Source: Candidatus Bathyarchaeota archaeon
Lineage (GTDB): Archaea > Thermoproteota > Bathyarchaeia > Bathyarchaeales > Bathycorpusculaceae
DNA: 64,000 bases
Assembly (NCBI GenBank): GCA_963775685.1
Contig: CAVZJV010000014.1
Coordinates: 736,001-800,000 of the forward strand
Direction: 5' to 3'
In this document: piece by piece, positions 11,866 through 61,378 of the stretch
Position numbering within the stretch: the first letter of the stretch is position 1
How the letters are laid out: each line of letters opens with the position of its first letter
Notes under the pieces: generated by a model
What the model saw: the letters and a program-made list of their open reading frames with translations, nothing else
Database searches by the model: none
What the model was told of the DNA's origin: nothing
Translations under genes and position numbers: made by a program

Positions 11866-11951
11866 GCTGAGAAGGCTCTGGTTAAAACGAATGGTGACTT
11901 AATCACCGGACGCATTTGCGTTCTTTTCTCTCCTTGCCCCAGAGCCTCAGC
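11866..11951 (+). ncRNA. Conserved bulged stem-loop element E1 downstream of beta-propeller gene
   Basis: GCTGA-gaa-GGCTCTGG...CCAGAGCC-TCAGC closing stem, inner hairpins, pyrimidine-rich loop; homologous copies at 55841, 60508 and 61282; RNA status inferred. Confidence 0.55.
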
Positions 11952-12337
11952 AAACCCCTAATTTGGCACTTTTTAATAAGTGCTTATCATGCTTCCTTAG
12001 ATTTTGTGATTCATTGTCCTAAAAATCGATTAGTCGCTTTCACGGATATTATTTCCAAATTGTGCACAGTTAAAACATAAGAAACATAATGAACTCCCAG
12101 TCCAAGTATTTTCTTTGGCATACAAATGCAGAAGGTGAATTTGTAAGAATCTAAAGCTTCAAAGGTCAAGTGTTGAAAAACTATATACTTAATAGCGGGT
12201 TTTTTCCAAAGGAGCAACCGGCATAAATGATATCTCATGGCCTTCATAGTCTGAGCCATACTCATGATGAGCAAAGCAGTCGGCAGTGCATCCAAGGACA
12301 TTTCGAAGAGCACATGCGCAAAGAAGGTTAAGCATCG

Positions 12338-12580
12338 ATGGCAGACCCAGTTAAACGTGCCCTAACAAGAAGACGCCTAGAGCGCGGACGCTGGATAGTG
12401 GAGGAACCTAACGATAAGTTGGTTCTGGGTGTAAAATTTGCCATAGGCATGACTGCTTTTATGTCGGCTCTTGAGCTTGCCCACATGGCGTTCTTGCATA
12501 CGTGGAATGCAGAGATTTTCGCTACAATCACTGGACTTAGCGGTACCATAATCGGATTGTTTGTGGGGCAGAAAACATGA
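12338..12580 (+). CDS. Small two-TM protein, probable proviral gene
   Basis: Two hydrophobic helices; stop overlaps the next ATG (ATGA). Confidence 0.6.
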   Translation: MADPVKRALTRRRLERGRWIVEEPNDKLVLGVKFAIGMTAFMSALELAHMAFLHTWNAEIFATITGLSGTIIGLFVGQKT

Positions 12581-13029
12581 CCAAAGGCAAACCTTGGCCA
12601 AAAGATGACGAGAAAAGGCTCAAAGACTGGTTTAACTCAGGCATAACAGACTATGCCGTACTAGCCTTTAGTTTGGAATTCAAGTATAGCCAAAACGCCA
12701 TCTACCAGAAGCTGTTAGACTTAGGACTAATTTCAAAAGAAGAAGAAGATAGAAAAATTTGCTCTTCTTCTTCTTTTAAAGACCTGCCGGATGAGCTTCC
12801 AAGTATTGAAACAATGCTAAAGAAGTTAGCCGCTGCAATAGAGGCACTACAGGAACCCGGTATAGATAAGTCTGAGATTTTGCGTCTGCGCGGAATCATC
12901 GCTGGAGCTAAGGTCTATCAAGAGCGTTTTGCAGAATACGTGCGTTACCGCAAAATTGAAGCTCAATTATTGGAGTTGAGACAAAAGTATGAGTCGCTTA
13001 GGAAAAAGTCCCAGGGCACTTCGTCCTAA
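12577..13029 (+). CDS. Helical DNA-binding-like protein, putative terminase small subunit
   Basis: N-terminal KGKPWPKDDEKRL HTH-like start and C-terminal coiled coil; overlaps a truncated ORF resembling a terminase large subunit N-terminus; function inferred. Confidence 0.45.
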   Translation: MTKGKPWPKDDEKRLKDWFNSGITDYAVLAFSLEFKYSQNAIYQKLLDLGLISKEEEDRKICSSSSFKDLPDELPSIETMLKKLAAAIEALQEPGIDKSEILRLRGIIAGAKVYQERFAEYVRYRKIEAQLLELRQKYESLRKKSQGTSS

Positions 13030-13198
13030 TCAGCTATTTTCTGAGTACGCCACGCTCTTTGAAGATGTGGCTGCTGTTGAAAAAGCCAGCGAAAACCAAG
13101 TTGGTATGCTAAAGAGTGATGTTAAGGGTTTTTTTGAGCATATGCTTTGCCCGAAGGAATTTCCTAAGACTCACATCTTTTTCCAAAATGTTTTTTAA
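12989..13198 (+). pseudogene. Truncated putative terminase large subunit N-terminus
   Basis: LRPNQLFSE...KSDVKGFFEHML resembles, from recall, the segment preceding the ATPase motif in archaeal provirus terminases; no Walker A follows, and the ORF runs into the terminator of the convergent gene. Confidence 0.35.
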
Positions 13199-13235
13199 AA
13201 CTAAAAAAGGGGAAAGATAGTTTTGTTTACTATGT

Positions 13236-15803
13236 TTATTGTGGTCTTTTTCTAAGGACAAGTATTGTGACTGCGAAACCTATAGCGATTGCGAGGATAA
13301 TTGCTGCGACTGCTGGAATGAAATATTGGTCAGCCATAGATGCTGCTGCAACAGGTGGTGGAGAGACGGTTGCTGATGGTTCGCTTGCGTAGAGGGCTGT
13401 GGACGCCGAGGACGGATAGTATGCTCCTGAGCCTGTAAAGGTTGCAGTAACTTCGTAATTACCTGAAATGTCCGGGGTCCAAGTTAGACTGTATGTGCCG
13501 TATGCATTGCTTGTAGTGGAGCCGATAACTCTGTAGTTGCCGTTGGAGTCTGTTACGGATATTGTTACAGGAACTCCAGTTATGTTATGTGGCATTGGTT
13601 GCTGCTCGTAAACGGCGGCCATAAACTGGCTCATGCTAGCGTCAGAAACTGCTGGAAGACCGTTGGGGAAGTTTGCTGCGACTGCTTGCTGTGATGCGCC
13701 AGCTGAGATGTCTGTTACTGTGCCGATTATTGTTACAGGTGTGGCTGTTGTTACGCCGAGTTGGGGTGCGCTTACGGTTGTTTTGCTTGGTCCTTGGCCA
13801 AAAGTGTAGATTTGATTGTCGTATGCATTGTAATCCACTAAATAACCATCAGCAAGTGCAAAGCATTTTCCAATAAAGTATCCGTCTATGCTCCATTCTT
13901 CCTTTCCTGTAGTAGCGTTAACTGCATATAATTTCGCTCCTCTAAATAATGCGTCGCCATGACTAGCTGAGCTGCCTACGAAGACATCACCGCCGCCCGT
14001 GCAAAGACCATATTCCCCTTCAAATAAATATGTGGGAGCAGCCTCCTGCACTCCTGCTGATGGAGCAGCGAAATCCCAAAGAAAAGTCCCGTTTGTAAGA
14101 CTCATTGCTTGAATAGACTCCGGGCCTAGGAAGTAAACTATGTTATTCCACGTTGCCGAATTTCTTGTATAAAGGTCCCAAGCATACGAGCTTCCCTTAA
14201 CTGAACCCCAGAGTTGCTCTCCTGTGTGTAGGCTAAAACCGAAGTATGTGTTGTCTTCTTTGTTGTGCTCAGTGTAGATGCCGTCTGCCATAACTTCCAT
14301 CCGAAGTTGAGATGTCTCTGGACCCATACCTAGCGTCCGGTTTACTGGACCCCAAAGCAATTGACCTGTTGTTGCACTGTAACCTGCTTCGCATTGGTAG
14401 TTCTGGGGTTGGTAGATTAGACCAGTTAATACGTGTTCAGTGCCAAGAACAAGAATTACACCGTCATCTATTCCGCCAATAGCTACTGACCCTTGAGCTG
14501 GAAGATTATACGGGTATAAAGGTACAGTTACGTTCCATTCTACTCCAGTACTCCACTGTAACGTCGCTCCTGGGGGTGGTCTGAATTCAATGGAGTTAAC
14601 CGCAAATCCAGCACTTCCTAGACATTTAGTTGAGTTCCACATGGCTAACCATCCTGTAGTGTCGTTAATCACGCGAAGAGTGTATACTAACAATTCACTT
14701 TCAGGATCGATGATAGCGGTGCCGCCTGTTGAGCCTACAACGTTTAGTATCCATCTTCCTGTATTTGCGTCAAACAATGAGTATGTACTGCCAGATACTC
14801 CCCAGAGGTATGGTATGCCGCCGACTTCATTCGGGTTGTGGTAGGTATACACTTGGCCATAGGATATTCCAGGCCAGTGAGTTACGGGCAGGCTAAAACC
14901 GCCGTAACTAGTTGGATTGGTTGGGTTTTGATTAGTTCCGTTATTATACCATAGCGTTTGTCCAGTACGTAAATCTACTGCGTAAAATCCATAGTCAGGC
15001 GCGATGTTGGAAGGCGAGTTGTAGTATAATACTCCGTTGATGATAACTGGCGGAGTAAATGGCCATTGATAGGATTTCCCTGTGTAGTAATTGCTAAATT
15101 CTGTTTGATTGTATGGACTCCCTCCTCCTATTTGGCCTCCAAACTCAAGGGGTTTCGTCCACATTATGTGTGCGGTTGCAGGTGCTGTAGTGTACGGATT
15201 AGAACTGCCGCTCGATTCAGTCCAACTCTGGATGCCAAGCCAGTTTCCTGAGATTTGCCACCATAGAACGTTTTGCCAGTTTATCGGACGTGTCCAGTAG
15301 TCTGTTGGAAGTGGATTTAGTGGTAGTGCAAGTATTGACTCTTCCTGGACTGTGAGAGTGATCGTGCTATTACTTGGTTCATAGTACAGGTCAAATCCAT
15401 AGTCGTTTACTAGTTGCCCAGGAAAGATAAAGGTTATAGTGTAATTACCAATGATAGTGGGTGTGAATGCGTAGCTGGAAACGGCTGTATAATCAGCTGT
15501 GAATGGTCCTGCATTACTTGTTGCTCCATTTGGGTCTGTGATTGAGAGTTTGTAATTATTCCAGACGTTTGCTACGGTTGAAGTTGTCAATAATTGTGAC
15601 AGCGGATTGACTTGAACCAACCCCATGCCGAGAACTGTGGTCTGACCAACCCCTACAGGGTCAGGAGCTGCTGTTATCCATGCATTTGTAACAGCATTTG
15701 TTGTGGCATTAACGCTTGGTAACATCACCGCTGAAGCTGCCATTGAGAAGGTTAGAAGTATCGCAATCAGAATTGCCATAGTTTTATTTTTTAGATTTAG
15801 CAT
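13236..15803 (-). CDS. PQQ-like beta-propeller surface protein (paralog 2), signal peptide and C-terminal TM anchor
   Basis: Start MLNLKNKTMAIL after a purine-rich RBS; repeated DLRTGQTLW/ATTGQLLW/ATTGKEEW blades; C-terminus TM + LRKRPQ. Confidence 0.88.
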   Translation of the reverse strand: MLNLKNKTMAILIAILLTFSMAASAVMLPSVNATTNAVTNAWITAAPDPVGVGQTTVLGMGLVQVNPLSQLLTTSTVANVWNNYKLSITDPNGATSNAGPFTADYTAVSSYAFTPTIIGNYTITFIFPGQLVNDYGFDLYYEPSNSTITLTVQEESILALPLNPLPTDYWTRPINWQNVLWWQISGNWLGIQSWTESSGSSNPYTTAPATAHIMWTKPLEFGGQIGGGSPYNQTEFSNYYTGKSYQWPFTPPVIINGVLYYNSPSNIAPDYGFYAVDLRTGQTLWYNNGTNQNPTNPTSYGGFSLPVTHWPGISYGQVYTYHNPNEVGGIPYLWGVSGSTYSLFDANTGRWILNVVGSTGGTAIIDPESELLVYTLRVINDTTGWLAMWNSTKCLGSAGFAVNSIEFRPPPGATLQWSTGVEWNVTVPLYPYNLPAQGSVAIGGIDDGVILVLGTEHVLTGLIYQPQNYQCEAGYSATTGQLLWGPVNRTLGMGPETSQLRMEVMADGIYTEHNKEDNTYFGFSLHTGEQLWGSVKGSSYAWDLYTRNSATWNNIVYFLGPESIQAMSLTNGTFLWDFAAPSAGVQEAAPTYLFEGEYGLCTGGGDVFVGSSASHGDALFRGAKLYAVNATTGKEEWSIDGYFIGKCFALADGYLVDYNAYDNQIYTFGQGPSKTTVSAPQLGVTTATPVTIIGTVTDISAGASQQAVAANFPNGLPAVSDASMSQFMAAVYEQQPMPHNITGVPVTISVTDSNGNYRVIGSTTSNAYGTYSLTWTPDISGNYEVTATFTGSGAYYPSSASTALYASEPSATVSPPPVAAASMADQYFIPAVAAIILAIAIGFAVTILVLRKRPQ

Positions 15804-15869
15804 TTTCTTTTCCTTTCCTATAATAATAATGCACGATTCATAGTATATATTCATATTGAATTTAACAAT

Positions 15870-15894
15870 TTGTAAGTCAAAAACATACTTACAA
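15870..15894. promoter_or_regulatory. Palindromic operator candidate between paralog 2 and divergent TrmB
   Basis: TTGTAAGT-N9-ACTTACAA, perfect 8-bp inverted repeat. Confidence 0.45.
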
Positions 15895-15962
15895 CTAAAA
15901 CCTTATGAATAAAAAATATCATATAATAATTAAACTACCAAGGCGCGCCAAGAGGAATTAAA

Positions 15963-16769
15963 GTGAAAAGTTCCGACGATTGCGTTTCTTCATTATGTGA
16001 ACTAGGCTTGGGTATTTCATAGGCAAAAATCTACCTCTCAATAGCAAAATCCAAAAATCTAAAAGCACAGGAAATATCCTCAATTTCCGGAGTAGCAAGA
16101 CCATACGGTTATGGAATATTAGCCCAGCTAGAGGAAGCCGGACTTGTAGAAAAAACAATATCAAAACCAAAAGAGTTCCATGCAATACCAATAGAAGAAT
16201 GCATTCACCATCTCCTTCAAAAAGGATAGTGAAAACCGCGAGCCCAAAATTTCCAACAGAAACCCGAAAACCAGGACCTACCCAAAGAATTCCAGTTTAT
16301 GCTTATCCAAAATAGAGACGCTGTGTACGCCAAGACTGAAAAAATGGTTAAATATGTCCAAAAAACCGTCTGCTTGATAGCGTTAAAAAAAGATTACGTG
16401 CTTGGATCACAAATTACTCACCCATTTTAGAAGAAGCCTAGCCAGAAAAGTAGATTTCAGAATCATTTTGCCAGAGCCAGAGAAGGACCAACACTTGGGA
16501 GAGCTTATTGAAGCCTTAATGAGGTACCCAAATTTTGATATAAGATTGATTTCAGAAGCTCTTAATGTTGGTTTTAGCGTCTGGGACGGAAAAGAAATAC
16601 TGCTTAGCACTTCGGAGATTGATACTCCTTATCCACAACCAACCTTATTGTCCAACAACAAAGGTATAGTAATTTAGCTCAAAATTATTTTGACTCATTA
16701 TGGCAACGTATAGAAAATAAAAATGAAAGAAGAAAAATGTGTATAGAAGATAAATCAACATTGATCTGA
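15963..16769 (+). pseudogene. TrmB-family regulator, disrupted
   Basis: MKSSDDCVSSLCELGLGIS*AKIYLSI...SGVARPYGYGILAQLEEAGLVEKTISKP HTH with in-frame TAG; later fragments VWDGKEILLST and KNYFDSLW match the intact TrmB at 52129; end approximate. Confidence 0.8.
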
Positions 16770-17240
16770 AATACTTTACGCATGCTACTGGTTTGAAACA
16801 ATCTGGATCTGACACCCCTGGAAAAAAGTAAACCAACAAGTAGGTAGCTCTTAAGACAACAATAACTTGCTATGGATACACAAAAAAAGGGCATTTGCAA
16901 TCTCTTCGAAATAACATTTTTTTTAAGTTAACAGAGAAAGGAAGGGCTGAAATCATTGACCTCTTCTATTCAGGTAAGGAAAAAAAGGAGCTAAAACGTA
17001 TCATCAAAATGATAGACCATCAACCAAAAAAAGAGTAAACACCATTGAAACCTAAAGGTATGTTACTGTTTTGAGGCAACCACAACAGTTTGTTTTCTTG
17101 AAATTACATATCCAATTTAGTGGACATTTAAGTACCCTCAAATATCCTCACCTCATGCTCAACCCAATAATTCCTTCAATGTCTCTTGCTAAGAAAGGAG
17201 CCGGCTTTGTTTTGAGTTTTTAAAATCTGCCATTAGAGAA

Positions 17241-19225
17241 TCAAGCAGTTGCTGAGTGTTTTTTCCTGTAAATTATGGCTATTAAAAGTATTGTGAGCAT
17301 TAACGTGATTATTATTGTCGTTGAGATTTCAGGTATGGTTGGTGATGGAGTTGGCTCAGGAGGGTTTGTTGACTGCGGTGTCGATGTAGTGGTGCTTGTG
17401 GGGCTTGTACTTGGAGTAGGACTGACGCTTGGAGTAGGATTAGTTGTTGATACGGTACCGAGGTTAACGGTTACTGTATGGGTGCTATGAGCATATGTGA
17501 AATGAAACAAGTAAGAATCAGAAGTTGATGTTGGTGTATAGATTAACTTGCTGTCGTCCAGGTTAACTTTTAGGTTGGCTATATCCGGCACAAGGTTTTT
17601 TGCAACTTGCATATCCACATACCCAGTTGTGCCGGAAGGACCGCTCACCGTAAAGCTTAACGTATTGCTTTGGGAATTAAAAGCTAATGATGACACAGTA
17701 GAATTTGACGAAACCGCAAAAACGTATTGGTTATTGTAAGGCAACACCGACAGCTCCACGTTTTTTTGGGATGATTCATAGGGATAAAGCCCATCATATG
17801 CTGCCTTAACCAAAAAAGTTCCTGTCGCTGCAGGAGTCCACACTGCGGAGTAGCTTCCGTCAGCTAAAGTGAAGGCAGAAGTAATGTCATTCCAGCTTTG
17901 CCCATCATTTATGCTTATTGAGAAGGTAATACGAGCATTGGAAACTGCGCTTTGATTTTCCGCTAAGAGTTTGCCAGTTATGGTAACGCTGAAGCTAAGC
18001 AACGAAGTCTGCGCGTTTAAAGATAACGAGAGACTTGTCTTAACAAGAGGGACTGCCCCAAACGCATAGACTTGACCTGTTGAGGACGGGCTTGAAGATG
18101 ATGAATCAGACCCTACGTATACATTGCCATAAGCAACTATGGGGCTAGATCGTATACTCTCGCCTGTAAGGTAAGTCCATATTACTTGCCCGTTAGTGGC
18201 GTTAAAGCAGTAAAGTTTGCCATCGTCTGCACCTATGAAAACCTTGCCATCGGCCACAGCTGGTGATGAGCAAAAATCAAATGAGCCTACGTTTGATGTC
18301 CAAACAATTGAGCCTGTGGTTGCATTGATACCTAAAAAGTTGTTCGTAGATCCAGCTGAGTGAATAAACACCATTCCGGCGTCTATTGCAGGAGAGGAGC
18401 GGTAGAGGGAACCCATACCGCCAGAAAGGCTAATGTTCCAAACTGTATAAGCGGACACCGCATCAACACATATTAGCCCGGAGCCATTACTTGCAAAAAT
18501 CTTTCCATCAGCAATTGCTGGCGAATTGTCTAAGATAGCTTGAATTAAGTTGCCAAATAAGCTGTCCGGTCAATACGTTGATGGTATAAAGGTTTCCTGC
18601 AGCTATAGCAACAGTGTTTTCATCAATTATTGCAGGGGAAGCGAAATTATAGGTGCCGAAGTTATAAATCCATTGAAGAGAACCAGTCTCTGAGTTCAAG
18701 CAGTATAAAGTTCCATTAACAGTATTGAAGATCACTTTGGTTGAAGTAACTACTGGAGAACAATCTATCTCATTATTTGAAAGAAACTGCCACAAAATGG
18801 CACCTGTTGTCTCATTTAGGCAGTAGAGGTTGTGATCCCGGGTTCCAACATAAAGCCTACCCAAACTTATTGCCGGAGAACTCCAAACGCTGTTTTCCCT
18901 ATTGGCTGTTATCTGCATCCAAATTTGCTGTCTTGTTGATGAATTGATTGCGTATACGTTTCCATTACTTGCTGCCACAAAAATAATGCCATCGGCGGCG
19001 GCAAGACTATTATGAATTTCTTCAGCAGATGTATTAAACACCCATAATAAATTGGCAGAACTAGGTGACGTACTGAGTAGAGGCGCCTGTATGTTGCACA
19101 TTGTTTCTGAACATTGGCCATTCGGTAGAGGACAAATCGCCTTTGGTATTTGAAAAAATGGTGGTTGACACCAACATAAACATGAACATAAAAATTAATG
19201 CTAAGGATAACGATTGCTTTCTCAT
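17241..19225 (-). pseudogene. BamB/PQQ-repeat secreted protein with Ig-like domains and IPE-TM-basic tail, frameshifted
   Basis: Signal peptide + WPMFRNNVQHTG, repeated SSPA blades; split into three ORFs (shifts near 19070 and 18530); S/T/P linker then PTIPEISTTIIITLMLTILLIAIIYRKK. Confidence 0.75.
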
Positions 19226-19605
19226 TCTATCAACCAAATTAGGATAGTTACAGACAGCTTTTAACAATATTGAATTCTTACTACTTAGCAATGGTTCAGA
19301 AACAGAGAAGAAAAATTAAGGGCGATCACCGCTTAGAATGCCGATACCAATTAAAGCATCCGGTCTTCATCTGAGACTAACGTTGGCTTTAAGATTTGTG
19401 ATATACTCTAATTTTCTAATTACTTTTCCACCTTCACTTCAGTCTCAACTGCCAGTAGAGGTTGTTTGGGCTCATGTCTTAAATGTTCAAAACTGCTTCA
19501 TCTTTTTGAACATGAAGGAGAACGTAGTTTGAGTCAGAATGTAATTGTTGAGCTTACGTTATCTCTACCGATTTTTCGGATGAGCCTCTCGAAGGTTAAT
19601 TCATA

Positions 19606-19968
19606 GTGGATAAGACCGTTTAATCTTTCAGGATTGCTTTAGAGTGTGAGATTGGTCGGTGGAGTGGTTTTGCGAGGGCTTTACGTAAGCCTGATCGGGA
19701 AGCCTTTGAAGAGCTTATGTACATGTGCCGAAACTACGCTTCAGCTGGAGGCTGTACAACCAACCCAATAATCTTTGAGCCTATGGTGATGTCTATTCTT
19801 ATTGCTCAGCAATCAAGAATTAGGCAGCTGGAAAAGGACTTGGCAGCCCTCAAACCATTAGAACCAAGTCTCTCTGCAAACATAAAATCGAACGAGATGG
19901 TACAATCAAAAGTTAAGGCTATCGTTCAAACAGCTGAAAGGGGAGGTATACAAATAAGGTTAAGCTAG
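19606..19968 (+). pseudogene. Small helical archaeal protein (resembles PolB2-associated arCOG07300 family) with premature stop
   Basis: GTG GAT AAG ACC GTT TAA then SFRIALECEIGRWSGFARALRKPDREAFEELMYMCRNYASAG...PIIFEPMVMSILIAQQ in one frame; family assignment from recall. Confidence 0.6.
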
Positions 19969-20080
19969 AAGCTAAAACAGTTAGAACCGATGACTTTGAA
20001 GAATTTCAGAAAGATAAGAAATATGGGAAAATAACTCGCAATCGACGTGGAAACTATGAACTGCATTTTTCGACTAAGCT

Positions 20081-20203
20081 AACCAAGACCAATACACTGT
20101 ACGCATCGTAGAGAAGCCTGAGGAAATCAAAGAACTCCTAGAAGGAGGGTTCGAATACGTCTGCCAAAAGGACAACTTAATATTCTTGAGGAAAAGAAAA
20201 TAG
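20081..20203 (+). mobile_element. Remnant of tyrosine integrase-like C-terminal tail
   Basis: NQDQYTVRIVEKPEEIKELLEGGFEYVCQKDNLIFLRKRK*, no start codon, about 55 bp before tRNA-His; homologous fragment at 51921. Confidence 0.5.
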
Positions 20204-20257
20204 GTAATAACCAAGCTTTAGAACAACGGCAAAAGTGGCCGAAAACAACGAAAAGCG

Positions 20258-20330
20258 GCCGGGGTGGTGTAGCTTGGTAGCATAGAGGCCTGTGGAGCCT
20301 TTCGCCCGAGTTCAAATCTCGGCCCCGGCC
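20258..20330 (+). tRNA. tRNA-His (GTG)
   Basis: Acceptor stem GCCGGGG/CCCCGGC, encoded G-1 at 20257 opposite discriminator C, anticodon arm GAGGC-CTGTGGA-GCCTT, T arm CCGAG-TTCAAAT-CTCGG; CCA not encoded. Confidence 0.95.
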
Positions 20331-20871: not shown

Positions 20872-20955
20872 ATATTGCAAATCAAAAAATGATACTAAAT
20901 TTTTAAGTTCAACACCTTCTATTAAGGCTATAAACATCAGAAAGCTGGGTGCAAT

Positions 20956-23582: not shown

Positions 23583-23583
23583 T

Positions 23584-52117: not shown

Positions 52118-52128
52118 CAAAGTAATCT

Positions 52129-52944
52129 CTAATTTTCTTTGTTAGATTTTCCTGAGGTAGAGTTTGAATTTCTTCCTCGGGACTTCCAAAGGGCTTTTGA
52201 TTGCGTGAACCAGAGTGTTTCAAAGTAATCCTGGACTATCCCGACGAGTGAGGGATTGTTCGACCACAACATAGAAGATCCCGCGAAATCTCCAGTTGGT
52301 GAAGTTACAATATTAACCTCTCTTTTATCATAAATTACTATCATAGCTGAAGGGATAGACGGGATATACCTGATGTTACAAGACGAGGTCTTGCAGACAT
52401 CCTCCAAAACTTTTGGCTGAGGCGTTTTTTGGTCAAATTCATCCAAAACGAATCGAACCTTTACTCCTCTATTTAATCCTTCAAAAATATCTCCACTTAC
52501 AGCAAACATCATTTGAAGAAATCTCTTGTGCGAAGTGACGCAATCTATGAAGTTTTGAGTAGCCTTAATGGTTTGTTTCCCCTTCTGGAGGCATGCTCTT
52601 CCTTTAGGAATCAAAACGAACTGCGTTTCATTAACGGATACTCCGTTTTTTTTCGCCTCGAACATATGGATTAAGCTTTGTGTTTGTATCTGCAATTCAC
52701 GGCTCTTCTCGAATCTAGCTTCCATCATGACATTGAGGGCTTCTTCCAAAGGGATAGATCGATACAAAATGGGGTTGGTTATAGATTTTTCAACAAAGCC
52801 CCTTTCTTCCAGCTCAGTTAAAATTCGGTAAATGTCTTGTCGGGCTACTTTGGATTCTTTTGAGATTACTTTTGCATTTGAGATTCCTAATTGACACAGC
52901 GCACTGTAAGTTCTGGCTTGGGTGACTGTAAACCCTAAGTCCAT
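52129..52944 (-). CDS. TrmB-family transcriptional regulator
   Basis: LGFTVTQARTYSAL...SKVARQDIYRILTELEERGFVEK HTH; IYDKREV and WSNNPSLVGIVQDYFETLW effector domain. Confidence 0.9.
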   Translation of the reverse strand: MDLGFTVTQARTYSALCQLGISNAKVISKESKVARQDIYRILTELEERGFVEKSITNPILYRSIPLEEALNVMMEARFEKSRELQIQTQSLIHMFEAKKNGVSVNETQFVLIPKGRACLQKGKQTIKATQNFIDCVTSHKRFLQMMFAVSGDIFEGLNRGVKVRFVLDEFDQKTPQPKVLEDVCKTSSCNIRYIPSIPSAMIVIYDKREVNIVTSPTGDFAGSSMLWSNNPSLVGIVQDYFETLWFTQSKALWKSRGRNSNSTSGKSNKEN

Positions 52945-52996
52945 TAGTACTATGGTTAATTCGTTTTTGACCCGGAATGTTGACGCCGTTGGAGGT

Positions 52997-53065
52997 CACA
53001 TTAGAATTTAATGTGTAATCTGCAGATAAATTTTTTGTTTTGTCAGTCGAGGTGCTTCCGACTGA
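52997..53065. promoter_or_regulatory. Two palindromic operator candidates between TrmB and paralog 3
   Basis: CACATTA-N5-TAATGTG (52997-53015) and TCAGTCG-N9-CGACTGA (53043-53065), the latter just before a TTATTA box. Confidence 0.45.
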
Positions 53066-53129
53066 GGCTTATTAGCTTTGCAATATAAACAAGCGATTGC
53101 GAAAATAAAAAATAGGAGAAGAAAAATAC

Positions 53130-55772
53130 ATGAAAATTCTAAAAAATAAGACTGCGGCCATAGCAATTGCTTTGCTCTTGATGTTTTCGATGTCGACTTC
53201 AACTACGCTATTACCAACCGCTACAGCGCATACACCCCCGTTTGTTTATCCGACATACGCGTTTATCAGTGTTCAACCAACCCCCGTTGGTATAGGTCAA
53301 CAAGTGTCTGTTAACTTTTGGATTGATAAGGCAGTGCTGACAGCCAATGGCGTTTATGGTGACAGATGGCAAAATTTCATGGTGAACGTTACTAAACCAG
53401 ATGACACCACTGAAAAGTTGGGGCCATTCACATCCGATGCAGCAGGAGGAGGACACACTTATTACACGCCCAGCACCCTCGGCAACTACACTTTCGTCTT
53501 CAGCTTTCCAGGACAAACATTATTAGGCGCCAATCCAGGCCCATCAGGCACATCTAATCCTAACAACATTGGCGATTATTTCGAACCCAGCACAAGTGCA
53601 CCATATATATTGTTTGTACAACAAGAGCCATCGCCACTTTTGCCAACAAACCCGCTCCCAACAAACTATTGGACACGCCCCATATTTGACAACAACTTGG
53701 CGTGGTACCCGATCGCCGGAAACTGGCTTGGCGGCGGCGCCGGAGGAAATAGTGGATGTGTTTACAATTCTACATCAAACTACGCTCCATACAGCACAGT
53801 CCCAACTACTGCCCACATAATGTGGACAAAACCATATGCCCCCGGAGGACTCATCGGGGGAGAATTTGGCGGCAACCAAGTGAACAGCAACTTCTATGCA
53901 ACCTCCCAATATGAACAAAAATTCGCTGGAGTTATCATCAACGGAGTATTGTACCGGACTTTAGAACCAGGGTCCACTAACAACTACATGGGCTGGGAAG
54001 CAACAGATCTGCGAACTGGAAAAACAATATGGTATCAAAATCAGTCTGCTACCACATGGCTAAGGATGGGTCAAATATTTGATTATGTTTCAATCAACCA
54101 ATTCGGAGGTCTCGCATACTTATGGGCCAATCTACCAACAGTAGCTCCCAACACAGGCAATACTTATGGCATGTACGACGCAATGACGGGAGGATGGATA
54201 TTGAACATAGTTAATGGCACCGCGCCGACGTGGGCGCAGGGACCCAACGGAGAGGTGTTAGGATACTATATCAACTCGACCTCAAAAACGCTGAACATGT
54301 GGAACTCAACCCAAGCCATCTTAAGAGGACCAACTGGAAGGGGGGACACGAATAGTCAGACATGGAGACCTAGTGCAGGAGCGTCTATTCCATGGTCATA
54401 CGGAGTGCAATGGACAGTGCCGATGGTCACGACGATAAAATTAGCCAATGGAACCACGGTAGACATCAATGAACAATATGCCCAAGATTCGGGAGATACT
54501 GATTTTCCTCTAGCCATAACTAAAGTCGCCGACATAATACTCGTAGATAATAGCTTGGCAGGGGGCAGGTTTGACGAGCCAGGTTACATAATTCAAGAAG
54601 CTTACAGCCCAATCGACGGGCATCTGCTGTGGGGCCCGTTAAACCAAACGATGACGCCGTTTGTTAGGACATCGATAGCTGCTATCGGAGATGGAGTTTA
54701 CACTCTTTTCATTTATGCAACGCAGTCATTTTATGGCTACAGCACAGCTACAGGAAAGCAGATCTGGGGACCCGTATCAATAGCAGTCGAAGATAATCCA
54801 TGGGGATACTATATTACCCACGCGGTAATCGGCGCTAACAACCAAATGTACGTGGATACATTCGGAGGGAACGTATGGGCTCTTGACATCACAAACGGAG
54901 CAATCATATGGCATAACAGCACTAATGCAGTCTCAAGTAGAGGAGTCGCAGGAGCGAATACTCCTTACGGTGTGTGGACTATCGCGAACGCTCCGGTCTT
55001 AACCAACGGAGCGTTTGTCACTATGGGAGGCCACTTATACAGCCCACCACTATATAATGGAGGCTCGATGTGTGTCTGGAACACGACTAACGGAAACCTA
55101 TTATGGGAGATCCTGGATTTCGCCACTTCAAACGGTGGTGAAGCCACTGTTGGCGACGGTTACATGGTGGTGACAAATGGCTATGACAATCAGTTGTACT
55201 GCTATGGCAAAGGACCAAGCCAAACAACTGTTATCGCACCTAACGTTGGCGTGACAACCTCAACACCAATAACGATAAGAGGAACAGTTACAGACATCGC
55301 TTCAGGCTCACAACAAGACGCAATGATAGCAAACTTCCCCAACGGTCTACCAGCTGTATCTGACGCAAGCATGACACCATTCATGGAAGCAGTTTATGAA
55401 CAGCAGCCAATGCCACATAACATAACCGGAGTCCCAGTAACAATATCTGTTACAGATTCTAATGGCAACTACAGAGATATCGGCACCACTACAAGCAATG
55501 CATATGGCACTTATAGTCTTAATTGGACACCAGACATTCCAGGCAACTACGAAGTCACTGCAACCTTTGCAGGCACAGAATCTTATTATCCATCCTCAGC
55601 AGCAACAGCCTTCTATGCTAGCGAGCCAGCAGCAACAACTGCGCCAATTGCTACCCCTGTATCAAACTCTGCAACAACGAGCGATCTTATGATAGGTATA
55701 GCTGCAATCATTGTTGTAATAGTCATAATTGGCATTGTATTGGTATTGCTGACGCTTAGAAAACGACCATAA
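53130..55772 (+). CDS. PQQ-like beta-propeller surface protein (paralog 3)
   Basis: Signal peptide, PTPVGIGQ, LPTNYWTRPI, DLRTGKTIW blades, YDNQLYCYGKGPS, TM + LRKRP. Confidence 0.9.
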   Translation: MKILKNKTAAIAIALLLMFSMSTSTTLLPTATAHTPPFVYPTYAFISVQPTPVGIGQQVSVNFWIDKAVLTANGVYGDRWQNFMVNVTKPDDTTEKLGPFTSDAAGGGHTYYTPSTLGNYTFVFSFPGQTLLGANPGPSGTSNPNNIGDYFEPSTSAPYILFVQQEPSPLLPTNPLPTNYWTRPIFDNNLAWYPIAGNWLGGGAGGNSGCVYNSTSNYAPYSTVPTTAHIMWTKPYAPGGLIGGEFGGNQVNSNFYATSQYEQKFAGVIINGVLYRTLEPGSTNNYMGWEATDLRTGKTIWYQNQSATTWLRMGQIFDYVSINQFGGLAYLWANLPTVAPNTGNTYGMYDAMTGGWILNIVNGTAPTWAQGPNGEVLGYYINSTSKTLNMWNSTQAILRGPTGRGDTNSQTWRPSAGASIPWSYGVQWTVPMVTTIKLANGTTVDINEQYAQDSGDTDFPLAITKVADIILVDNSLAGGRFDEPGYIIQEAYSPIDGHLLWGPLNQTMTPFVRTSIAAIGDGVYTLFIYATQSFYGYSTATGKQIWGPVSIAVEDNPWGYYITHAVIGANNQMYVDTFGGNVWALDITNGAIIWHNSTNAVSSRGVAGANTPYGVWTIANAPVLTNGAFVTMGGHLYSPPLYNGGSMCVWNTTNGNLLWEILDFATSNGGEATVGDGYMVVTNGYDNQLYCYGKGPSQTTVIAPNVGVTTSTPITIRGTVTDIASGSQQDAMIANFPNGLPAVSDASMTPFMEAVYEQQPMPHNITGVPVTISVTDSNGNYRDIGTTTSNAYGTYSLNWTPDIPGNYEVTATFAGTESYYPSSAATAFYASEPAATTAPIATPVSNSATTSDLMIGIAAIIVVIVIIGIVLVLLTLRKRP

Positions 55773-55789
55773 AAAAGCCAAACAAACAA

Positions 55790-55811
55790 AAACTATCTTC
55801 CCCTTTTTTAG
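55790..55811 (+). terminator. Oligo-T terminator conserved across the beta-propeller family
   Basis: AACTATCTTCCCCTTTTTTAG; near-identical tracts follow all five paralogs (about 11825, 13205, 60465 and 61410). Confidence 0.6.
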
Positions 55812-55840
55812 TCCAAAAAATGCATTGGAGAAAAAAGCGC

Positions 55841-55939
55841 GCTGATTAGGCTTTGGATAAATTTAACTGTTGAAGCTGCAATCAAAATAGGTTTATGCAT
55901 TTTTCCTCTTCTCTCCTATTTCGGTTCTAGAGCCTCAGC
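55841..55939 (+). ncRNA. Conserved bulged stem-loop element E2
   Basis: GCTGA-tta-GGCTTTGG...CTAGAGCC-TCAGC, differences tolerated as G-U pairs. Confidence 0.55.
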
Positions 55940-56110
55940 AAACCCTAACCTTTGAACGCTTAAGAAATATGCATTTCTGATTAACAACCAGACTCACAAG
56001 ACTCTGCCCTGCAATGTACATGCATCGACTTTGCTCAAATTTTTCTGGAAAATTTTCGGACGCACTCGTGCGCTCGAGGTTGGTCTTTGAACGGATTTTA
56101 ACATTTCTGC

Positions 56111-56294
56111 TCATGCGGAATTGTTCTGAACGGATTTTTTGGTTGTCGCTATGTGTTCGCCTTGGACGACTTCCAACTGCCATTCCAAAGTGTCGCCCGG
56201 CTGGAGCCCCAAGAAGACGACTACTCCTTCAGGAACTGTCGCTCTAAACTTTAGAGTTTGGGTGCGCTATCGATGTTTTTGATTTTAGGCTCAT
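56111..56294 (-). pseudogene. AbrB/MazE/SpoVT-like small DNA-binding protein, frameshifted
   Basis: MSLKSKTSIAHPNSK-(shift)-RATVPEGVVVFLGLQPGDTLEWQLEVVQGEHIATTKK. Confidence 0.6.
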
Positions 56295-56399
56295 GCTTAA
56301 ATCATTGTTTCATTATTGATAGTTTTTAAAAAATGCAGAAAACGCCCCGCTATTTTTGTTATCCTTAATTAAGCTCAGTCAAACTCCGTTTGGTTTTTC

Positions 56400-57395
56400 T
56401 TAAAAGGTTGAAATATATTGATGAGGGCCAGGCCAAACAGGTGGAATCCTTCTCAATGTTCCTTCCATTTTTTTGATATGGGGTATTTTGAGAATTTCGT
56501 CATTTATTCTGATGATATCCTTACAATCTTTTACCAGAGCGACTGCTGATAAATCAAAATTGCCGCTAATTTTTACAATATATGAAACACCCGGTATTTT
56601 TGACAATTTGTCGGTAATTCTATTGACTTCCGATTGGTCAGCCAATGCCAAACTTATTTCTAGGATATTCTGAAAACCTACCTCTAGAGGATTAAATTGA
56701 ATTACAGCTTTAATATAATTGCCCATCTTAAGCTTTTCATATCTTCTTGAAACCGTCGCTGTTGATACACCTATCTGTTGACCCAATCTGTTGAATGTTA
56801 AGCGCCCATTTAACATAAGTGCATCAATAATTTTCTGATCAACCGCATCAAGATTATAAGTTGGTGCTTTTGTTGGAACTGTTACATCGCTAATGTCACA
56901 ATCTGGGTCAGAAAAAATGTTTTCAGGTATATTTCTACAATCAGTCCAAATATAGGTTTTGAAATCATTAATCTGATTTTGTCTATTTATAGATTGTTTG
57001 ACATTTTCAAGATCCCTTAAATTCTTTAAAAGCACTATAGCTGCCACGTTGTAAATGGAGTTATAATATTTGAACGCTCCTCCATTGAGGAATAGAATTT
57101 TTTGCAGCCTACTGCAAACATCTTCCACATTCTGGGACTCGACATTCATCATTATCATGGCAACAGCATCAAAGCCTAATTTGGGAACATTAATTTCTAT
57201 TGTGGAACCGACAATAATGTCTGACCTTTTCAATTCAATGAAATGTTTCCAAATGACTTTATCGGAGGTTTGACAATTTTTTGCGATGTCAGTAAAGTTT
57301 GTCCTCCCATCTCTTAAAAGCGCTTTAAGTATTTTGATGTCAATTTGTTCGAGGTCTCGCATAGCTGTAATTTTATTCTTAGCTAAATAAATCAT
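56400..57395 (-). CDS. Lrp/AsnC family regulator, tandem duplicated
   Basis: IDIKILKALLRDGRTNFTDIAK and LDAVDQKIIDALMLNGRLTFNRLGQQIGVSTATVSRR HTHs, each followed by a RAM domain. Confidence 0.88.
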   Translation of the reverse strand: MIYLAKNKITAMRDLEQIDIKILKALLRDGRTNFTDIAKNCQTSDKVIWKHFIELKRSDIIVGSTIEINVPKLGFDAVAMIMMNVESQNVEDVCSRLQKILFLNGGAFKYYNSIYNVAAIVLLKNLRDLENVKQSINRQNQINDFKTYIWTDCRNIPENIFSDPDCDISDVTVPTKAPTYNLDAVDQKIIDALMLNGRLTFNRLGQQIGVSTATVSRRYEKLKMGNYIKAVIQFNPLEVGFQNILEISLALADQSEVNRITDKLSKIPGVSYIVKISGNFDLSAVALVKDCKDIIRINDEILKIPHIKKMEGTLRRIPPVWPGPHQYISTF

Positions 57396-57762
57396 CTGCT
57401 TTAATATACTTCTTCAAATGTAGAAAGCCCAGTAAATAAACGATAAATTTTGGGTTTCCTTTATAAAATTTTTAAAAATACAATCCGCTTTTTAATACCT
57501 TGGATAAATTTAAAAACGAATTACCAATATAAAATTATACTTTTTACCTCTTATTTTAAACGTTCAATCTCGCATATAGGATTATTATTTAGAGCTGGAT
57601 CAGCTCTAATCTGAAAAATAATCGCTATGAAAAAGTAGATTGTTAGATTTAATTTCATAATTTATCCTTATTATGGCAAAGCTTATAAGCGTTCTTCATA
57701 AGCGTACCGAGAGAGAAAGTGCTTTGGCGCGATCTCTAAAAATTAAAGGAAGAAAAGAACAA

Positions 57763-60447
57763 ATGCAAAATCTTAAAGGTAAAACCTTAGCTATTTTGAT
57801 CGCATCAATCTTAACAGTTTCAATGGGATCTACAACTGTTCTATTGCCAATTGCTAACGCTCACACACCGCCTTATCAAATTCCAACATATGCTTTCATC
57901 AATGTTGCACCTAATCCTGCAGGCTTAGGACAGTCAGTTAACATTGGATTCTGGCTTGGCCAACCCACCCCGACAGCAGGCACAATTTACGGTGACAGAT
58001 GGTCAGGCATGACATTAAAAGTCACAAAACCCGATGGTACCACAGAAACCCTAGGTCCATTTACTGCTGATGATACAGGCGGAACATACAGTAGCTACAC
58101 ACCAAACCAACTTGGCAACTACACTTTCCAAATGAGTTTTCCAGGACAAACATTAGAAGGCACTAACCCCCCTCCGAGAGGATATTCTCCTGCAGTACAA
58201 GAAGATATTGGCGACTACTATGAGCCAAGTACCAGTGAAATAGCAACGCTTGCAGTGCAACAAGAGCCGATACCACTTATTCCGCAGAATCCGCTTCCAA
58301 CAACCTACTGGACTCGCCCAGTACAATCTGGGAACAGCTTATGGTATCAAATTACTGGCAACTGGCTTGGACTAGGCTCTTTATTTAGCGCTAGCACTGG
58401 CATGTACAATGCAACTGGAAACTACAATCCATACACTACAGCGCCGACAACCGCCCACGTTCTATGGACAAAGCCTATAGCATTCGGAGGTTTAATCGGT
58501 GGAGAATTCGGCGGAACAGATACAAGCAATTACTATGCAACACGACAGTACGAAAGAATGTTCCAGCCAATAATCATGAACGGTATACTATACTACGAAG
58601 AATACCCCGAAAGTACTCAAAACCCAACGGGTTGGGCAGCAGTAAACTTAAAGACAGGACAAACACTGTGGAGAGAAGATTCTACCAACTATGGTGGTGG
58701 TTCTCCAGCGCAAACAGCTCTATTACCAAATGGTTTGGTTACAACTCTAAGATGCGGACAATTACTTGATTATATGACTCCCAATCAATACGGGGCCTTA
58801 GCATACTTGTGGAGCACCGGAACCCCTGATGGAATAGTTTCGACTGGAACGACTTGGAACATGTTTGATGCTATGACTGGACAATATGTACTAAGCATTG
58901 TTAACGGTACTTCGCTCTCGCCGCTTGTAGAAGATGACGGGGGAAACTTGATTGGTTACTACGTCAACTCAAGTACTGCTAATGCATATCATGCACCTAC
59001 CTTGAACATGTGGAATTCAACGCAATGCATTGTTGAAGGAACCAACGGAGCTGCGGCTTGGCAATGGAGACCGACACAAAACGCCCAAATTCCGTTTTCG
59101 CTAGGCATAATGTGGTCAATGCCCTTAACTACTAACATTTCAGGTGCTGCTTTGCCTTCGACGCTTTCACTTCCAGGCGGTGCCTACTCTGTTACAGCTG
59201 CAACTTTCAATAGTGGCGTCCTGTTTATGCATGCGTTAGGTTCCACTGGAGGTTCCAGCTACAATACTGGATTTGATATCCAAGCAGGCTACAGTGCGGA
59301 CACAGGGAAACAGTTATGGATAGTTAACAGAACAGAAACGCCTTACACAAGAGTTGATTTTTCACAAACTTCACATGGAGTCTATGTTGAAATCAACCAA
59401 GATACAGCGGCTTGCACTGGTTACAATATCAACACAGGCCAGGTACAGTGGGGTCCAATTACGCTTCCAGATCCTGACCCTTACAACAGCATTGGTAGCT
59501 ATTATGGCCAAGTTGCTGACGGTATGCTCTACTTAAGCAGTTTTGGTGGAAACATCTACGCTATGAACATAGAGACGGGTGCTATCATTTGGCAAACTGA
59601 CACAAACACGCTTACTGGTGAAGCGGGTTCTGACACTCCTTATGGAGTGTGGCCTCTTTGGCAGTTTGGGAACCCAGGAGCTATTGCTGATGGAATGTTA
59701 TTTCTCGGTGAAGGCCATGAATACAGTCCGCCTCTTTTCCGCGGAGCACAGCAACTTGCAATAAATCTTACTGATGGAACGCTTGTTTGGAGCATGACAG
59801 CTTTTGATGTTGACGGCGGTACAGCTATTGCTGATGGAGTAATGCTAGCAGAAAGTTCGTATGATAATCAGATATACGCTTGGGCCATGGGACCGAGCAA
59901 GACAACGGTTACCGCACCTAGTGTTGGCGTAACGACTGCTACACCAGTGACGATTAGGGGGACGGTAAATGATATTTCGGCCGGCACGCAGCAAGAAGCT
60001 GTTGCGGCCAACTTCCCGGGTGGTCTTCCTTGTGTTTCTGACGCAAGCATGACGCTGTGGATGGAATTCGTCTATCAGCAGCAGCTTTGTCCGTCGAACG
60101 TGACTGGTGTTCCAGTAACACTTAGCGTTGTTGACAGTAACGGCAACTACAGACAAATCGGTACAACTACAAGCGATGCTAGCGGTATGTTCACTTACAC
60201 GTGGACACCTGATATTCAAGGTGACTATACTGTTATCGCAAACTTTGCAGGTACACAATCATATTATCCATCTTCTGCTGAAACATCATTCTATGCCAGT
60301 GATGCAGTAACTCCAGTACCAACTGTTGCGCCTCAATCAAACCTAGCAACGACAACAGATCTACTGATGTACATAGCGGTTGCAGCTATTGCAATAATTA
60401 TTGCAATCGCAATTGCTACAGTGCTATTACTCAGGAAAAGACCATAA
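57763..60447 (+). CDS. PQQ-like beta-propeller surface protein (paralog 4)
   Basis: Start MQNLKGKTLAIL after GGAAGAAAAGAAC; family motifs as above; TM + LRKRP. Confidence 0.9.
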   Translation: MQNLKGKTLAILIASILTVSMGSTTVLLPIANAHTPPYQIPTYAFINVAPNPAGLGQSVNIGFWLGQPTPTAGTIYGDRWSGMTLKVTKPDGTTETLGPFTADDTGGTYSSYTPNQLGNYTFQMSFPGQTLEGTNPPPRGYSPAVQEDIGDYYEPSTSEIATLAVQQEPIPLIPQNPLPTTYWTRPVQSGNSLWYQITGNWLGLGSLFSASTGMYNATGNYNPYTTAPTTAHVLWTKPIAFGGLIGGEFGGTDTSNYYATRQYERMFQPIIMNGILYYEEYPESTQNPTGWAAVNLKTGQTLWREDSTNYGGGSPAQTALLPNGLVTTLRCGQLLDYMTPNQYGALAYLWSTGTPDGIVSTGTTWNMFDAMTGQYVLSIVNGTSLSPLVEDDGGNLIGYYVNSSTANAYHAPTLNMWNSTQCIVEGTNGAAAWQWRPTQNAQIPFSLGIMWSMPLTTNISGAALPSTLSLPGGAYSVTAATFNSGVLFMHALGSTGGSSYNTGFDIQAGYSADTGKQLWIVNRTETPYTRVDFSQTSHGVYVEINQDTAACTGYNINTGQVQWGPITLPDPDPYNSIGSYYGQVADGMLYLSSFGGNIYAMNIETGAIIWQTDTNTLTGEAGSDTPYGVWPLWQFGNPGAIADGMLFLGEGHEYSPPLFRGAQQLAINLTDGTLVWSMTAFDVDGGTAIADGVMLAESSYDNQIYAWAMGPSKTTVTAPSVGVTTATPVTIRGTVNDISAGTQQEAVAANFPGGLPCVSDASMTLWMEFVYQQQLCPSNVTGVPVTLSVVDSNGNYRQIGTTTSDASGMFTYTWTPDIQGDYTVIANFAGTQSYYPSSAETSFYASDAVTPVPTVAPQSNLATTTDLLMYIAVAAIAIIIAIAIATVLLLRKRP

Positions 60448-60469
60448 ACACGATAAACCAAACTATCTT

Positions 60470-60520
60470 TCCCCTTTTTTAGTTTAAATTCAAGCGATCA
60501 AACTGGGGCTGAGTGGGCTT
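60470..60520. repeat. 51-bp perfect inverted repeat, left arm (right arm 61366..61416)
   Basis: TCCCCTTTTTTAGTTTAAATTCAAGCGATCAAACTGGGGCTGAGTGGGCTT is the exact reverse complement of 61366..61416. Confidence 0.92.
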
Positions 60521-60588
60521 TGGTTAAAATTCATGATACTAGCCATGTCGTGACTTAGCAATTGCATTGTTATTTCCAGAGCTTCAGC
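60508..60588 (+). ncRNA. Conserved bulged stem-loop element E3
   Basis: GCTGA-gtg-GGCTTTGG...CCAGAGCT-TCAGC; inner hairpin TCATGATA/TGTCGTGA with G-U pairs on this strand. Confidence 0.55.
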
Positions 60589-60632
60589 AACCATTTTTCT
60601 TCACGGCTGCTTTTCTAGTTCAGAAATCATTA

Positions 60633-60696
60633 TGGTGGATCGAGGGATTTGAACCCTTCATCCAGTGGAGATGTCACCCGCATATCCCCTTTTTTA
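60633..60696. repeat. tRNA-3'-like att-site repeat B
   Basis: Reverse complement GGGTTCAAATCCCTCGATCCACCA, plus shared arm CAGTGGAGATGTCACCCGCATATCCCCTTTTT. Confidence 0.6.
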
Positions 60697-60801
60697 TTTA
60701 ACATAGAAGGCCCTTAAAAAATTTCTGTTTTGTAAAGTGTTCGTTTAATTAATGGTTTAATTTATTTAGGGCTCAATTTGTAACTGTTTAGCGTTTTTAG
60801 A

Positions 60802-60864
60802 GAGGGATTAAATTGAACCCACCTCTCAGTGGAGACCTCGATCGCTTATCCCATTTTTTATTTA
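60802..60864. repeat. Degenerate att-like repeat C
   Basis: GAGGGATT..TTGAACCC..CAGTGGAGA..CGCTTATCCCATTTTTTATTTA aligns with repeat B. Confidence 0.5.
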
Positions 60865-60889
60865 CCTATCTTAGCGGTTTTTCGATGCC

Positions 60890-61210
60890 TACTCAAAAGC
60901 TAATATTGATAGAAAGACAACTATAGTCACTATAACGCTGATAGGTAATATGTAATCAGTCAACTCCCAAAGCTGCGAATTTCTATCTGTTGGGAGTGAA
61001 GAGAATACGCTTGGTGAATTGGTTGCTGTCTGATTAGGCGTTGATGTTGGCGGATTTGTTGTTGCAGTTGGGTAGATGAAATTTCTCCAATATAGAAAAC
61101 AATTGGTTCTGATGAATCGGTAAAAGAAATACCTCCTGACTTATCGTGTATGTTTGCGGTAATCACGATGGAGTGAATACAATATGATAAACTAGCAGTC
61201 GTGTGGTTAT
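60890..61210 (-). pseudogene. Remnant C-terminus of a surface protein (S/T/P linker + TM anchor)
   Basis: Fragments PTATTNPPTSTPNQTATNSPS and YILPISVIVTIVVFLSILAF; frameshifted with no N-terminus; boundaries approximate. Confidence 0.4.
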
Positions 61211-61281
61211 TGCTAAAAACCGTCTCTGAGATAACATCAAAGAAATATGTCTTTAAGAAGTGCTAAATATGGTCGGTTATT

Positions 61282-61378
61282 GCTGGGGTTTGGACTCAGT
61301 TACTCTTGGAGAAAAGAAAAATGAAGAAACCAAACCTTGAATGCACACACAGCAAAGGTTATCAGAAGCCCACTCAGC
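61282..61378 (-). ncRNA. Stem-loop element E4 (more divergent)
   Basis: GCTGAGTGGGCTT...GAGTCCAAACCCCAGC; same pyrimidine loop TTCATTTTTCTTTTCTCC. Confidence 0.4.

Follow-up and report, generated by a model that had tools for sequence, protein, structure and literature searches.

Processing at bulge-helix-bulge (BHB) motifs is confined to archaea and eukaryotes. The portions of the literature available here list as its substrates tRNA introns, pre-16S and pre-23S rRNA, an intron in the Cbf5 mRNA and a 46-nt intron in the 5' untranslated region (UTR) of Haloferax HVO_1309 (PMC7714728, PMC12558985); outside tRNA and rRNA, only one mRNA intron and one 5' UTR intron are named as substrates of the archaeal splicing endonuclease in the part of the first source on which we draw (PMC7714728). 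The same part defines the strict motif, hBHBh', by a 4-bp central helix, two 3-nt bulges on opposite strands, each 3' of its strand of the central helix, and closing helices h and h' of at least two Watson-Crick pairs each, and states that the (alpha-beta)2 endonucleases of the TACK group accept relaxed motifs (PMC7714728). BHB cleavage followed by ligation is, in the sections of both sources used here, the established route to archaeal circular RNAs (PMC12558985, PMC7714728). A second kind of precedent is sRNA162 of Methanosarcina mazei, a trans-acting archaeal small RNA (sRNA) that, in the available part of its description, masks ribosome-binding sites (PMC3510493). Here we analyse a window of 64,000 nt (positions 736,001 to 800,000 of contig CAVZJV010000014.1, assembly GCA_963775685.1) from the soil archaeon Candidatus Bathyarchaeota archaeon, in which genes of one surface-protein family are followed by a short structured element whose closing stem reads as a BHB motif and whose interior is antisense to the translation starts of the same family.

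The family protein is about 880 aa long and combines a PQQ_2 beta-propeller, an Ig-like domain and a C-terminal membrane anchor. In the host genome (metagenome-assembled, 3.06 Mb, 14 contigs), tblastn detects 51 paralog 3' ends. An earlier note on this stretch had described a structured element behind four paralogs and had proposed that it acts as an antisense RNA against the family's ribosome-binding sites and start codons; the observation is confirmed and is larger than that note reported. Each of the four copies in the window, E1 to E4, is preceded by an oligo-T tract, as had been described, and they are laid out as follows.

11863..11957, plus strand: E1, BHB-bounded (covariance model 72 bits, E 6e-18)
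11863-11865 / 11955-11957: outer helix of E1
11866-11869 / 11948-11951: central 4-bp helix of E1
11870-11872 and 11952-11954: 5' and 3' bulges of E1
11873-11881 / 11939-11947: inner 9-bp helix of E1
11893-11907, 11910-11921 and 11922-11933: interior of E1, with hairpin P2, a P3-like palindrome and a pyrimidine tract
55838..55945, plus strand: E2, BHB-bounded (covariance model 87.1 bits)
55841-55844 / 55936-55939: central helix of E2
55845-55847 and 55940-55942: 5' and 3' bulges of E2
55848-55856 / 55927-55935: inner helix of E2
55870-55885, 55892-55904 and 55905-55916: interior of E2, with P2, the anti-start loop region and a pyrimidine tract
60505..60593, plus strand: E3, with central helix, bulges and inner helix intact and a diverged interior (covariance model 48.9 bits)
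61276..61381, minus strand: E4, a decayed copy with its 3' arm and outer helix broken (nhmmer E 0.00099)

Both arms of E1 to E3 are exactly as had been claimed, at 11866-11951, 55841-55939 and 60508-60588, and the 5' arm pattern, with at most two mismatches, gives 7 matches against 2.05 expected, a number reached in none of 100 shuffles. The outer helix of E2 is weak, with one of its three pairs formed. E4, which had been called more divergent, is indeed decayed in its 3' arm (61276-61381, minus strand) and goes unreported by the covariance model at E<=1; over its first ~20 nt and the spacer before them it shares 95% identity with E3. Terminator tract, spacer and element start (~20 nt) of these two copies together form a 58-nt inverted repeat, with 95% identity between 60470-60527 and 61359-61416. 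Lying behind two convergent paralogs, this repeat looks like recent gene conversion.

The 5' strand of the closing stem runs through a short outer helix (GGG), the central-helix sequence GCUG, a 3-nt bulge and a 9-nt inner-helix strand, and the 3' strand follows with the inner-helix partner, CAGC, a 3-nt bulge and CCC. We assembled 62 copies from several genomes in a model-fitted alignment, on which the structure statistics are based and in which the fitting itself favours structure. The central 4-bp helix GCUG/CAGC is fully paired in 55 of the 62 copies, the 5' bulge is exactly 3 nt long in 60 (AGA in 28, AGU in 24) and the 3' bulge exactly 3 nt in 61 (AAA in 53). Within the inner 9-bp helix, 92.5% of cells are paired and 6 of the 9 pairs vary on both sides; the first two pairs of the closing helix h' are present in 49/62 copies and both adjacent pairs of helix h in 45/62. 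Judged by this arrangement, the closing stem is a predicted BHB (splicing-endonuclease) motif and not merely a bulged hairpin, a point that the earlier note had missed. By reading, the canonical 37/38 intron of the host tRNA-Trp agrees with the element in the order of helices and bulges and in the letters of both bulges (AGA and AAA). Read from the reverse strand, the motif would have its bulges on the wrong side of the central helix; the BHB motif therefore selects the gene-sense strand, and would supply both a strand call and a candidate processing mechanism. The enzymes for such processing are encoded in the host genome, with two tRNA_int_endo genes and one RtcB gene. The two tRNA-intron endonuclease-domain genes are separate (G000:C14:189566-189820, plus strand, and 868142-868393, minus strand), which fits a two-subunit, broad-specificity enzyme.

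Beyond the motif, the element behaves as a conserved structure. In single-sequence folds, a long closing stem encloses a variable hairpin, P2, and then P3, a hairpin with the pyrimidine tract behind it; the folds concur on all three parts. In the 62-sequence alignment, 87.8% of cells are paired. The covariation score of 0.197 exceeds that of all 500 shuffles (0.124 +/- 0.006), in keeping with the structural conservation that had been claimed, and the signal falls sharply when pairing partners are slid. In P3, 5/5 pairs vary on both sides; a direct parse, which missed some copies, finds a stem of at least 4 bp around the UUUUGCAUUU-type loop in 39/62 copies, and at least 20 different innermost stem sequences surround this constant loop. 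RNAalifold on a plain MAFFT alignment recovers the outer stem only.

The same features bear on whether the element acts at the level of DNA, as a MITE-like transposon (a miniature inverted-repeat transposable element), an invertible segment or a recombination site that shuffles paralog 5' ends, an explanation that we regard as improbable. It would account for the imperfect terminal inverted repeats, for the many copies, half and hybrid ones included, and for the sharp homology boundaries described below. The outer stem has 39 G-U pairs and 44 A-C mismatches, and the inner hairpin 39 and 34; such near-equal numbers would fit an absence of selection on either RNA strand, and the earlier argument that G-U pairs favour the sense strand as the folded one falls away. 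Against a DNA-level role, the 3-nt asymmetries are kept in length and letters in 60-61 of the 62 copies, which would be meaningless for a double-stranded DNA repeat; in all copies seen, the interior points the same way with respect to both the arms and the gene upstream; and most copies sit at a fixed place beside one gene family and are not scattered.

A scan of the window against Rfam 15 returned tRNA-His as its sole hit, and permissive Rfam 15 scans of four copies gave nothing above 20 bits, where thresholds lie at 36-80; the search for a matching Rfam family that the earlier note had proposed thus finds none at the gathering threshold. Some known classes were set aside by eye, namely a K-turn (no G.A pairs after the bulge), a C/D-box sRNA (no C box) and an integron attC-like site (genes scattered over both strands and not arrayed). 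A sense-strand open reading frame was rejected in the same way, as the 24 copies with the AGU bulge read TAG in the sole frame shared with an upstream ATG.

The element is a multi-copy companion of the gene family. The host genome contains 26-33 copies, with 33 copies or fragments by nhmmer and 27 by the covariance model at E<=1e-4. An element lies 52-153 nt downstream, on the same strand, of 22 of the 51 paralog ends, which accounts for 22 of the 33 copies. For the remaining 11 copies or fragments, no paralog end was detected directly in front: several are halves or precede another paralog, and about six have no link to any paralog. Both half copies and hybrid copies exist in this genome. With regard to a MITE or DNA transposon, copies are not scattered regardless of gene family, most being at a fixed distance behind one family. 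A role as the 5' UTR of the next paralog finds little footing, as a family start lies within 600 nt downstream in only 9/33 copies.

Relatives from other metagenome-assembled genomes show the same association. Across a set of 80 such loci, 36 elements are detected by the covariance model at E<1e-5, each in the orientation of the gene; in 32 loci one stands just behind the gene. In a sample of 121 genomes of the class, the element occurs in 7, the host genome included. These positive genomes belong to two taxonomic families of one order (4/9 and 2/3 of the other genomes, respectively), and none of the genomes from the other 28 families in the sample has an element. In the second family, coordinate comparison places elements after a same-strand paralog in 11/12 cases (G090) and 13/15 cases (G098). 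Two or three elements can stand in tandem behind one paralog (G000:C14:658450-658545 and 658928-659034; G038:C3:47914-48814; G032:C8:5030-5277). Two near-identical copies, G000:C5:124150-124237 and C8:5530-5616, have neither an upstream paralog nor an oligo-T tract; in their outer helix U-A has replaced G-C, a compensatory change that preserves the motif.

The interior of the element matches, in the same linear order, the antisense of paralog 5' ends: leader, start codon and early codons. We built a leader hidden Markov model (HMM) from 22 paralog 5' ends; at 5 bits or more, it matches 11/26 elements of the host genome and 20/36 from other genomes (31/62), every best hit being antisense, against 5/2000 random genomic windows and 0/1240 shuffled elements. 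The spacer upstream of the element is unlike the family leader, with 0/62 at >=5 bits. Conversely, the antisense strand of paralog 5' ends is weakly matched by the element model. When each start is scored by its longest exact complement, the median is 13 nt among 40 family starts and 8 nt among 308 others that bear a Shine-Dalgarno (SD) sequence, one of which is itself a family member; exact complements of at least 11 nt occur for 32/40 family starts and 33/308 others. The complementarity to the family's ribosome-binding site and start codon thus goes beyond the low complexity of which the earlier note had warned, as both the leader HMM and the exact complements indicate. By position, the matches divide into three target zones (-18..-3, -2..+7 and +18..+41), and the interval from +8 to +17 is free of them. 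In the 30 of 62 elements with good alignment, agreement with the antisense consensus is seen at 54% of the predicted unpaired interior positions and 37% of the paired ones, an enrichment that the Fisher p-value overstates, the sequences being related. Such colinear seeds over ~60 nt suggest descent from an inverted copy of a target 5' end.

Within the window, exact complements to family 5' regions reach 16 nt in E2 and 11 nt in E1, in the SD zone. The E1 match to the leader of paralog 4 can be read directly from the sequence, as had been pointed out, and the 'CAT + pyrimidine run + TCC' noticed in each interior is real, corresponding to the loop and 3' flank of an internal hairpin.

The same bases could in principle be read on the other strand as a small protein gene, with the GGAG-like tract and ATG as its true ribosome-binding site and start. 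An SD-like tract does lie 7-10 nt before the ATG in most copies, and E1 has a reverse-strand open reading frame of 52 aa (11757-11915). The predicted peptides, however, vary by reading in frame and length between subfamilies, some ending after 5-12 codons, and the would-be codons show no protein-level conservation, whereas the stem that encloses the ATG covaries. Element lengths fall into all three classes modulo 3, and therefore no frame runs through both conserved arms, an argument that applies to either strand and leaves the earlier caveat about small antisense reading frames unlikely. We give a reverse-strand protein very little credence.

A further possibility is that the element acts in cis, as a 3' UTR that pairs with the SD site and start of its own mRNA and, through this 5'-3' circularisation, tunes its own translation. 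Its position 52-153 nt behind the stop codon on the same strand would suit this, as would its complementarity to family translation-initiation regions. The own-gene leader is not a preferred partner, however: across 13 gene-element pairs with a mapped start, its mean rank is 23.2 of 40 (20.5 by chance) and its mean energy of -15.0 is worse than the -16.5 of random family leaders. Copies without an upstream paralog also exist, and we consider the cis explanation distinctly improbable.

We tentatively favour, while holding it somewhat short of probable, a reading in which the element is an endonuclease-excised, probably circular, trans-antisense RNA. The RNA would be made on the strand of the upstream paralog, whether by transcription that continues past the oligo-T tract or from an initiation site immediately in front of the element. 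EndA would cut in both bulges of the closing stem, and RtcB would close the excised piece of ~80-105 nt into a circle, the same cut-and-circularise route by which tRNA introns and pre-rRNAs are handled. The excised RNA would retain the inner helix and two hairpins and expose three single-stranded stretches, of which the pyrimidine tract is complementary to the SD site, the conserved UUUUGCAUUU-type loop to the start codon and second codon, and the second loop to codons ~7-14. Paired in trans with the 5' ends of sibling paralog mRNAs, these stretches would block translation initiation.

Regarding where the transcript might begin, 37/62 copies have a T5+ run that ends 20-32 nt ahead of them, and 45/62 have a T4+ run within 60 nt downstream. 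The TTTAAA box reported upstream of E1, E3 and E4 is present there; as a general promoter it does not hold, a TATA-like hexamer at -34 to -20 being found in only 15/62 copies. A purine-rich GCAATGGAGAAAAGA-like motif is conserved ~10-25 nt upstream of the element in many copies (window 55823-55839; L108, L086 and L090). It sits between the oligo-T tract and the element start, is complementary to the internal pyrimidine tract and could be a promoter-proximal element or an alternative pairing partner.

Several observations weigh against an excised antisense RNA of this kind. The register of the BHB motif is favoured, not proven, at 4 bp, because a 5-bp central helix fits 53/62 copies, about as well as the 4-bp one in 55/60; the pair that sets the register is A-U in 47, G-C in 6, G-U in 2 and another combination in 5. 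The strict hBHBh' form, with at least two adjacent pairs in both flanking helices, is present in only 33/62, most failures being due to the outer helix, which has 2-3 bp and is weak in E2 and E3. Wobble pairs are neutral as to strand and show no sense-strand preference. E3 is not complementary to a family 5' end over any exact run of 10 nt or more. By duplex free energy, a comparison of the kind that the earlier note had listed among those able to refute its proposal, family leaders are no better than other purine-rich starts (-16.5 vs -15.9 kcal/mol for 250 other SD-bearing starts, p=0.12), random 40-mers being a poor control here; energies below -19 are found for 12/40 family starts and 31/250 others. 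The leaders of genes without an element are better matched (-17.2 vs -15.1), a trend only (p=0.057) among genes that are not independent. A single search, made with L045:2800-4600, a related locus from peat, yielded only small shares among RNA runs; contigs from four of them cover parts of its coding region and a stretch downstream, none lying over the element, which is uninformative.

The BHB evidence would serve equally well for a more modest explanation, in which the element is an intron-like 3' unit whose excision matters for the host transcript only, in its 3'-end maturation or stability, or which spreads selfishly or by conversion; its antisense likeness would then be a relic of inverted duplication with no target in trans. 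We consider this somewhat unlikely. Homology between loci ends at the 3' end of the element: in 21 of 23 pairs at least 80% identical, downstream flanks are at 0.50-0.73 identity, where background is 0.57 +/- 0.03, and in those pairs the elements are 0.80-0.91 identical while the upstream gene ends reach only 0.57-0.76. Element likeness does not track gene-end likeness (Mantel r=-0.12), in a test where the gene ends, at 0.59-0.73 identity, hold little signal. Such a sharp boundary means either that the unit is constrained more than coding sequence or that it is copied between loci with breakpoints at its ends. The tandem copies and the lack of family specificity in duplex energy also agree with an intron-like unit. 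Against it, complementarity is kept preferentially at unpaired positions, the matches lie in three discrete functional target zones, the start codon included, and the anti-start loop is kept across two taxonomic families while its stem covaries, which is unexpected of a decaying relic. The idea of an antisense RNA directed at family translation starts is viable and better founded than when the earlier note put it forward.

The remaining features of the window that concern the family are the paralogs themselves and the tracts behind them.

9276..11803, plus strand: paralog 1 of the PQQ-propeller surface-protein family, 5' of E1, split into several reading frames
11831..11837, plus strand: terminator-like oligo-T tract between the stop codon and E1
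13236..15803, minus strand: fifth paralog, without an element, with a consensus-type leader and start
53130..55772, plus strand: paralog of 880 aa with PQQ_2 propeller, Ig-like domain and C-terminal membrane anchor, 5' of E2
57763..60447, plus strand: paralog 5' of E3, whose likely true start is the ATG at 57763, after an SD-like GGAAG
61445..64000, minus strand: paralog 5' of E4, which extends past the window end
55804-55809, 60475-60480 and 61406-61411 (the last on the minus strand): equivalent oligo-T tracts before E2, E3 and E4

The fifth paralog (13236-15803, minus strand), which the earlier note had overlooked, has the same terminator-like flank as its siblings, yet no element follows it. 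Paralog 1 (9276-11803, plus strand) may be a pseudogene or may be split by sequencing frameshifts; the intact E1 nevertheless follows it. Regulator genes of the TrmB and AsnC/Lrp types adjoin paralogs, at window positions 52129-52944 and 56400-57395, both on the minus strand. Between E3 and E4, a tRNA-like 3' fragment comprising a T arm, acceptor strand and CCA lies at 60633-60679 on the minus strand, with a weak tRNA-clan match (E 0.022), and a second, looser look-alike follows ~170 nt beyond it, at about 60800-60860; ARAGORN finds no full tRNA at these look-alikes in the E3-E4 interval.

If the favoured reading is extended to the whole family, transcription of a paralog in two related families of Bathyarchaeia would also yield, by the action of the tRNA-splicing enzymes, a stable antisense circle that keeps ribosomes from loading on sibling mRNAs. 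This would lead to hierarchical or mutually exclusive display of ~15-50 surface proteins, with the antisense genes derived from inverted duplication of the targets' 5' ends, a scenario that, taken as a whole, we rate as rather unlikely. Tens of BHB-bounded units per genome would constitute a new class of splicing-endonuclease substrate and a new source of circular RNA. Literature searches on Bathyarchaeota small, antisense and non-coding RNA, and on BHB motifs, circular RNA, UTRs and introns, found no such element, the supplements of the cited papers being outside their scope. To our knowledge, there is no earlier archaeal case of a paralog family that carries its own antisense regulators, and if the excised RNA does hit family starts, this would be the first; it would also provide a way in which uncultured Bathyarchaeia could select among their expanded surface proteins.

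Set beside the described systems, the element resembles BHB introns in its 4-bp helix, its two 3-nt bulges on opposite strands and its closing helices, and in that circularisation would be expected. Unlike them, it lies outside tRNA, rRNA, coding sequence and 5' UTR, behind the terminator-like tract of a protein gene; it occurs in tens of copies per genome beside one gene family, with flanking 'exons' that are not conserved; and its conserved part is the predicted excised piece, antisense to the family's translation starts. With sRNA162, as far as the partial account of that RNA goes, the element would share trans pairing with the SD and start region of a target; it differs in that its many copies stand behind genes of the very family they would target, are enclosed by a predicted splicing motif and have seeds colinear with the target over ~60 nt. 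The icaR mRNA of Staphylococcus aureus reportedly carries in its 3' UTR an anti-SD element that pairs with its own 5' UTR, and CopA and RNAI are structured plasmid antisense RNAs with recognition loops. The element is like these in having an anti-SD tract in a 3' region and complementarity in hairpin loops, and unlike icaR in that its own leader is not the preferred partner and that its setting is archaeal. Fujishima and colleagues are said to have described tRNA intron 'transposition' in Thermoproteales. The present copies are similar to those introns, as near-identical BHB-bounded units at different loci with unrelated flanks, but their hosts are the 3' flanks of protein genes, and the unit bears antisense information.

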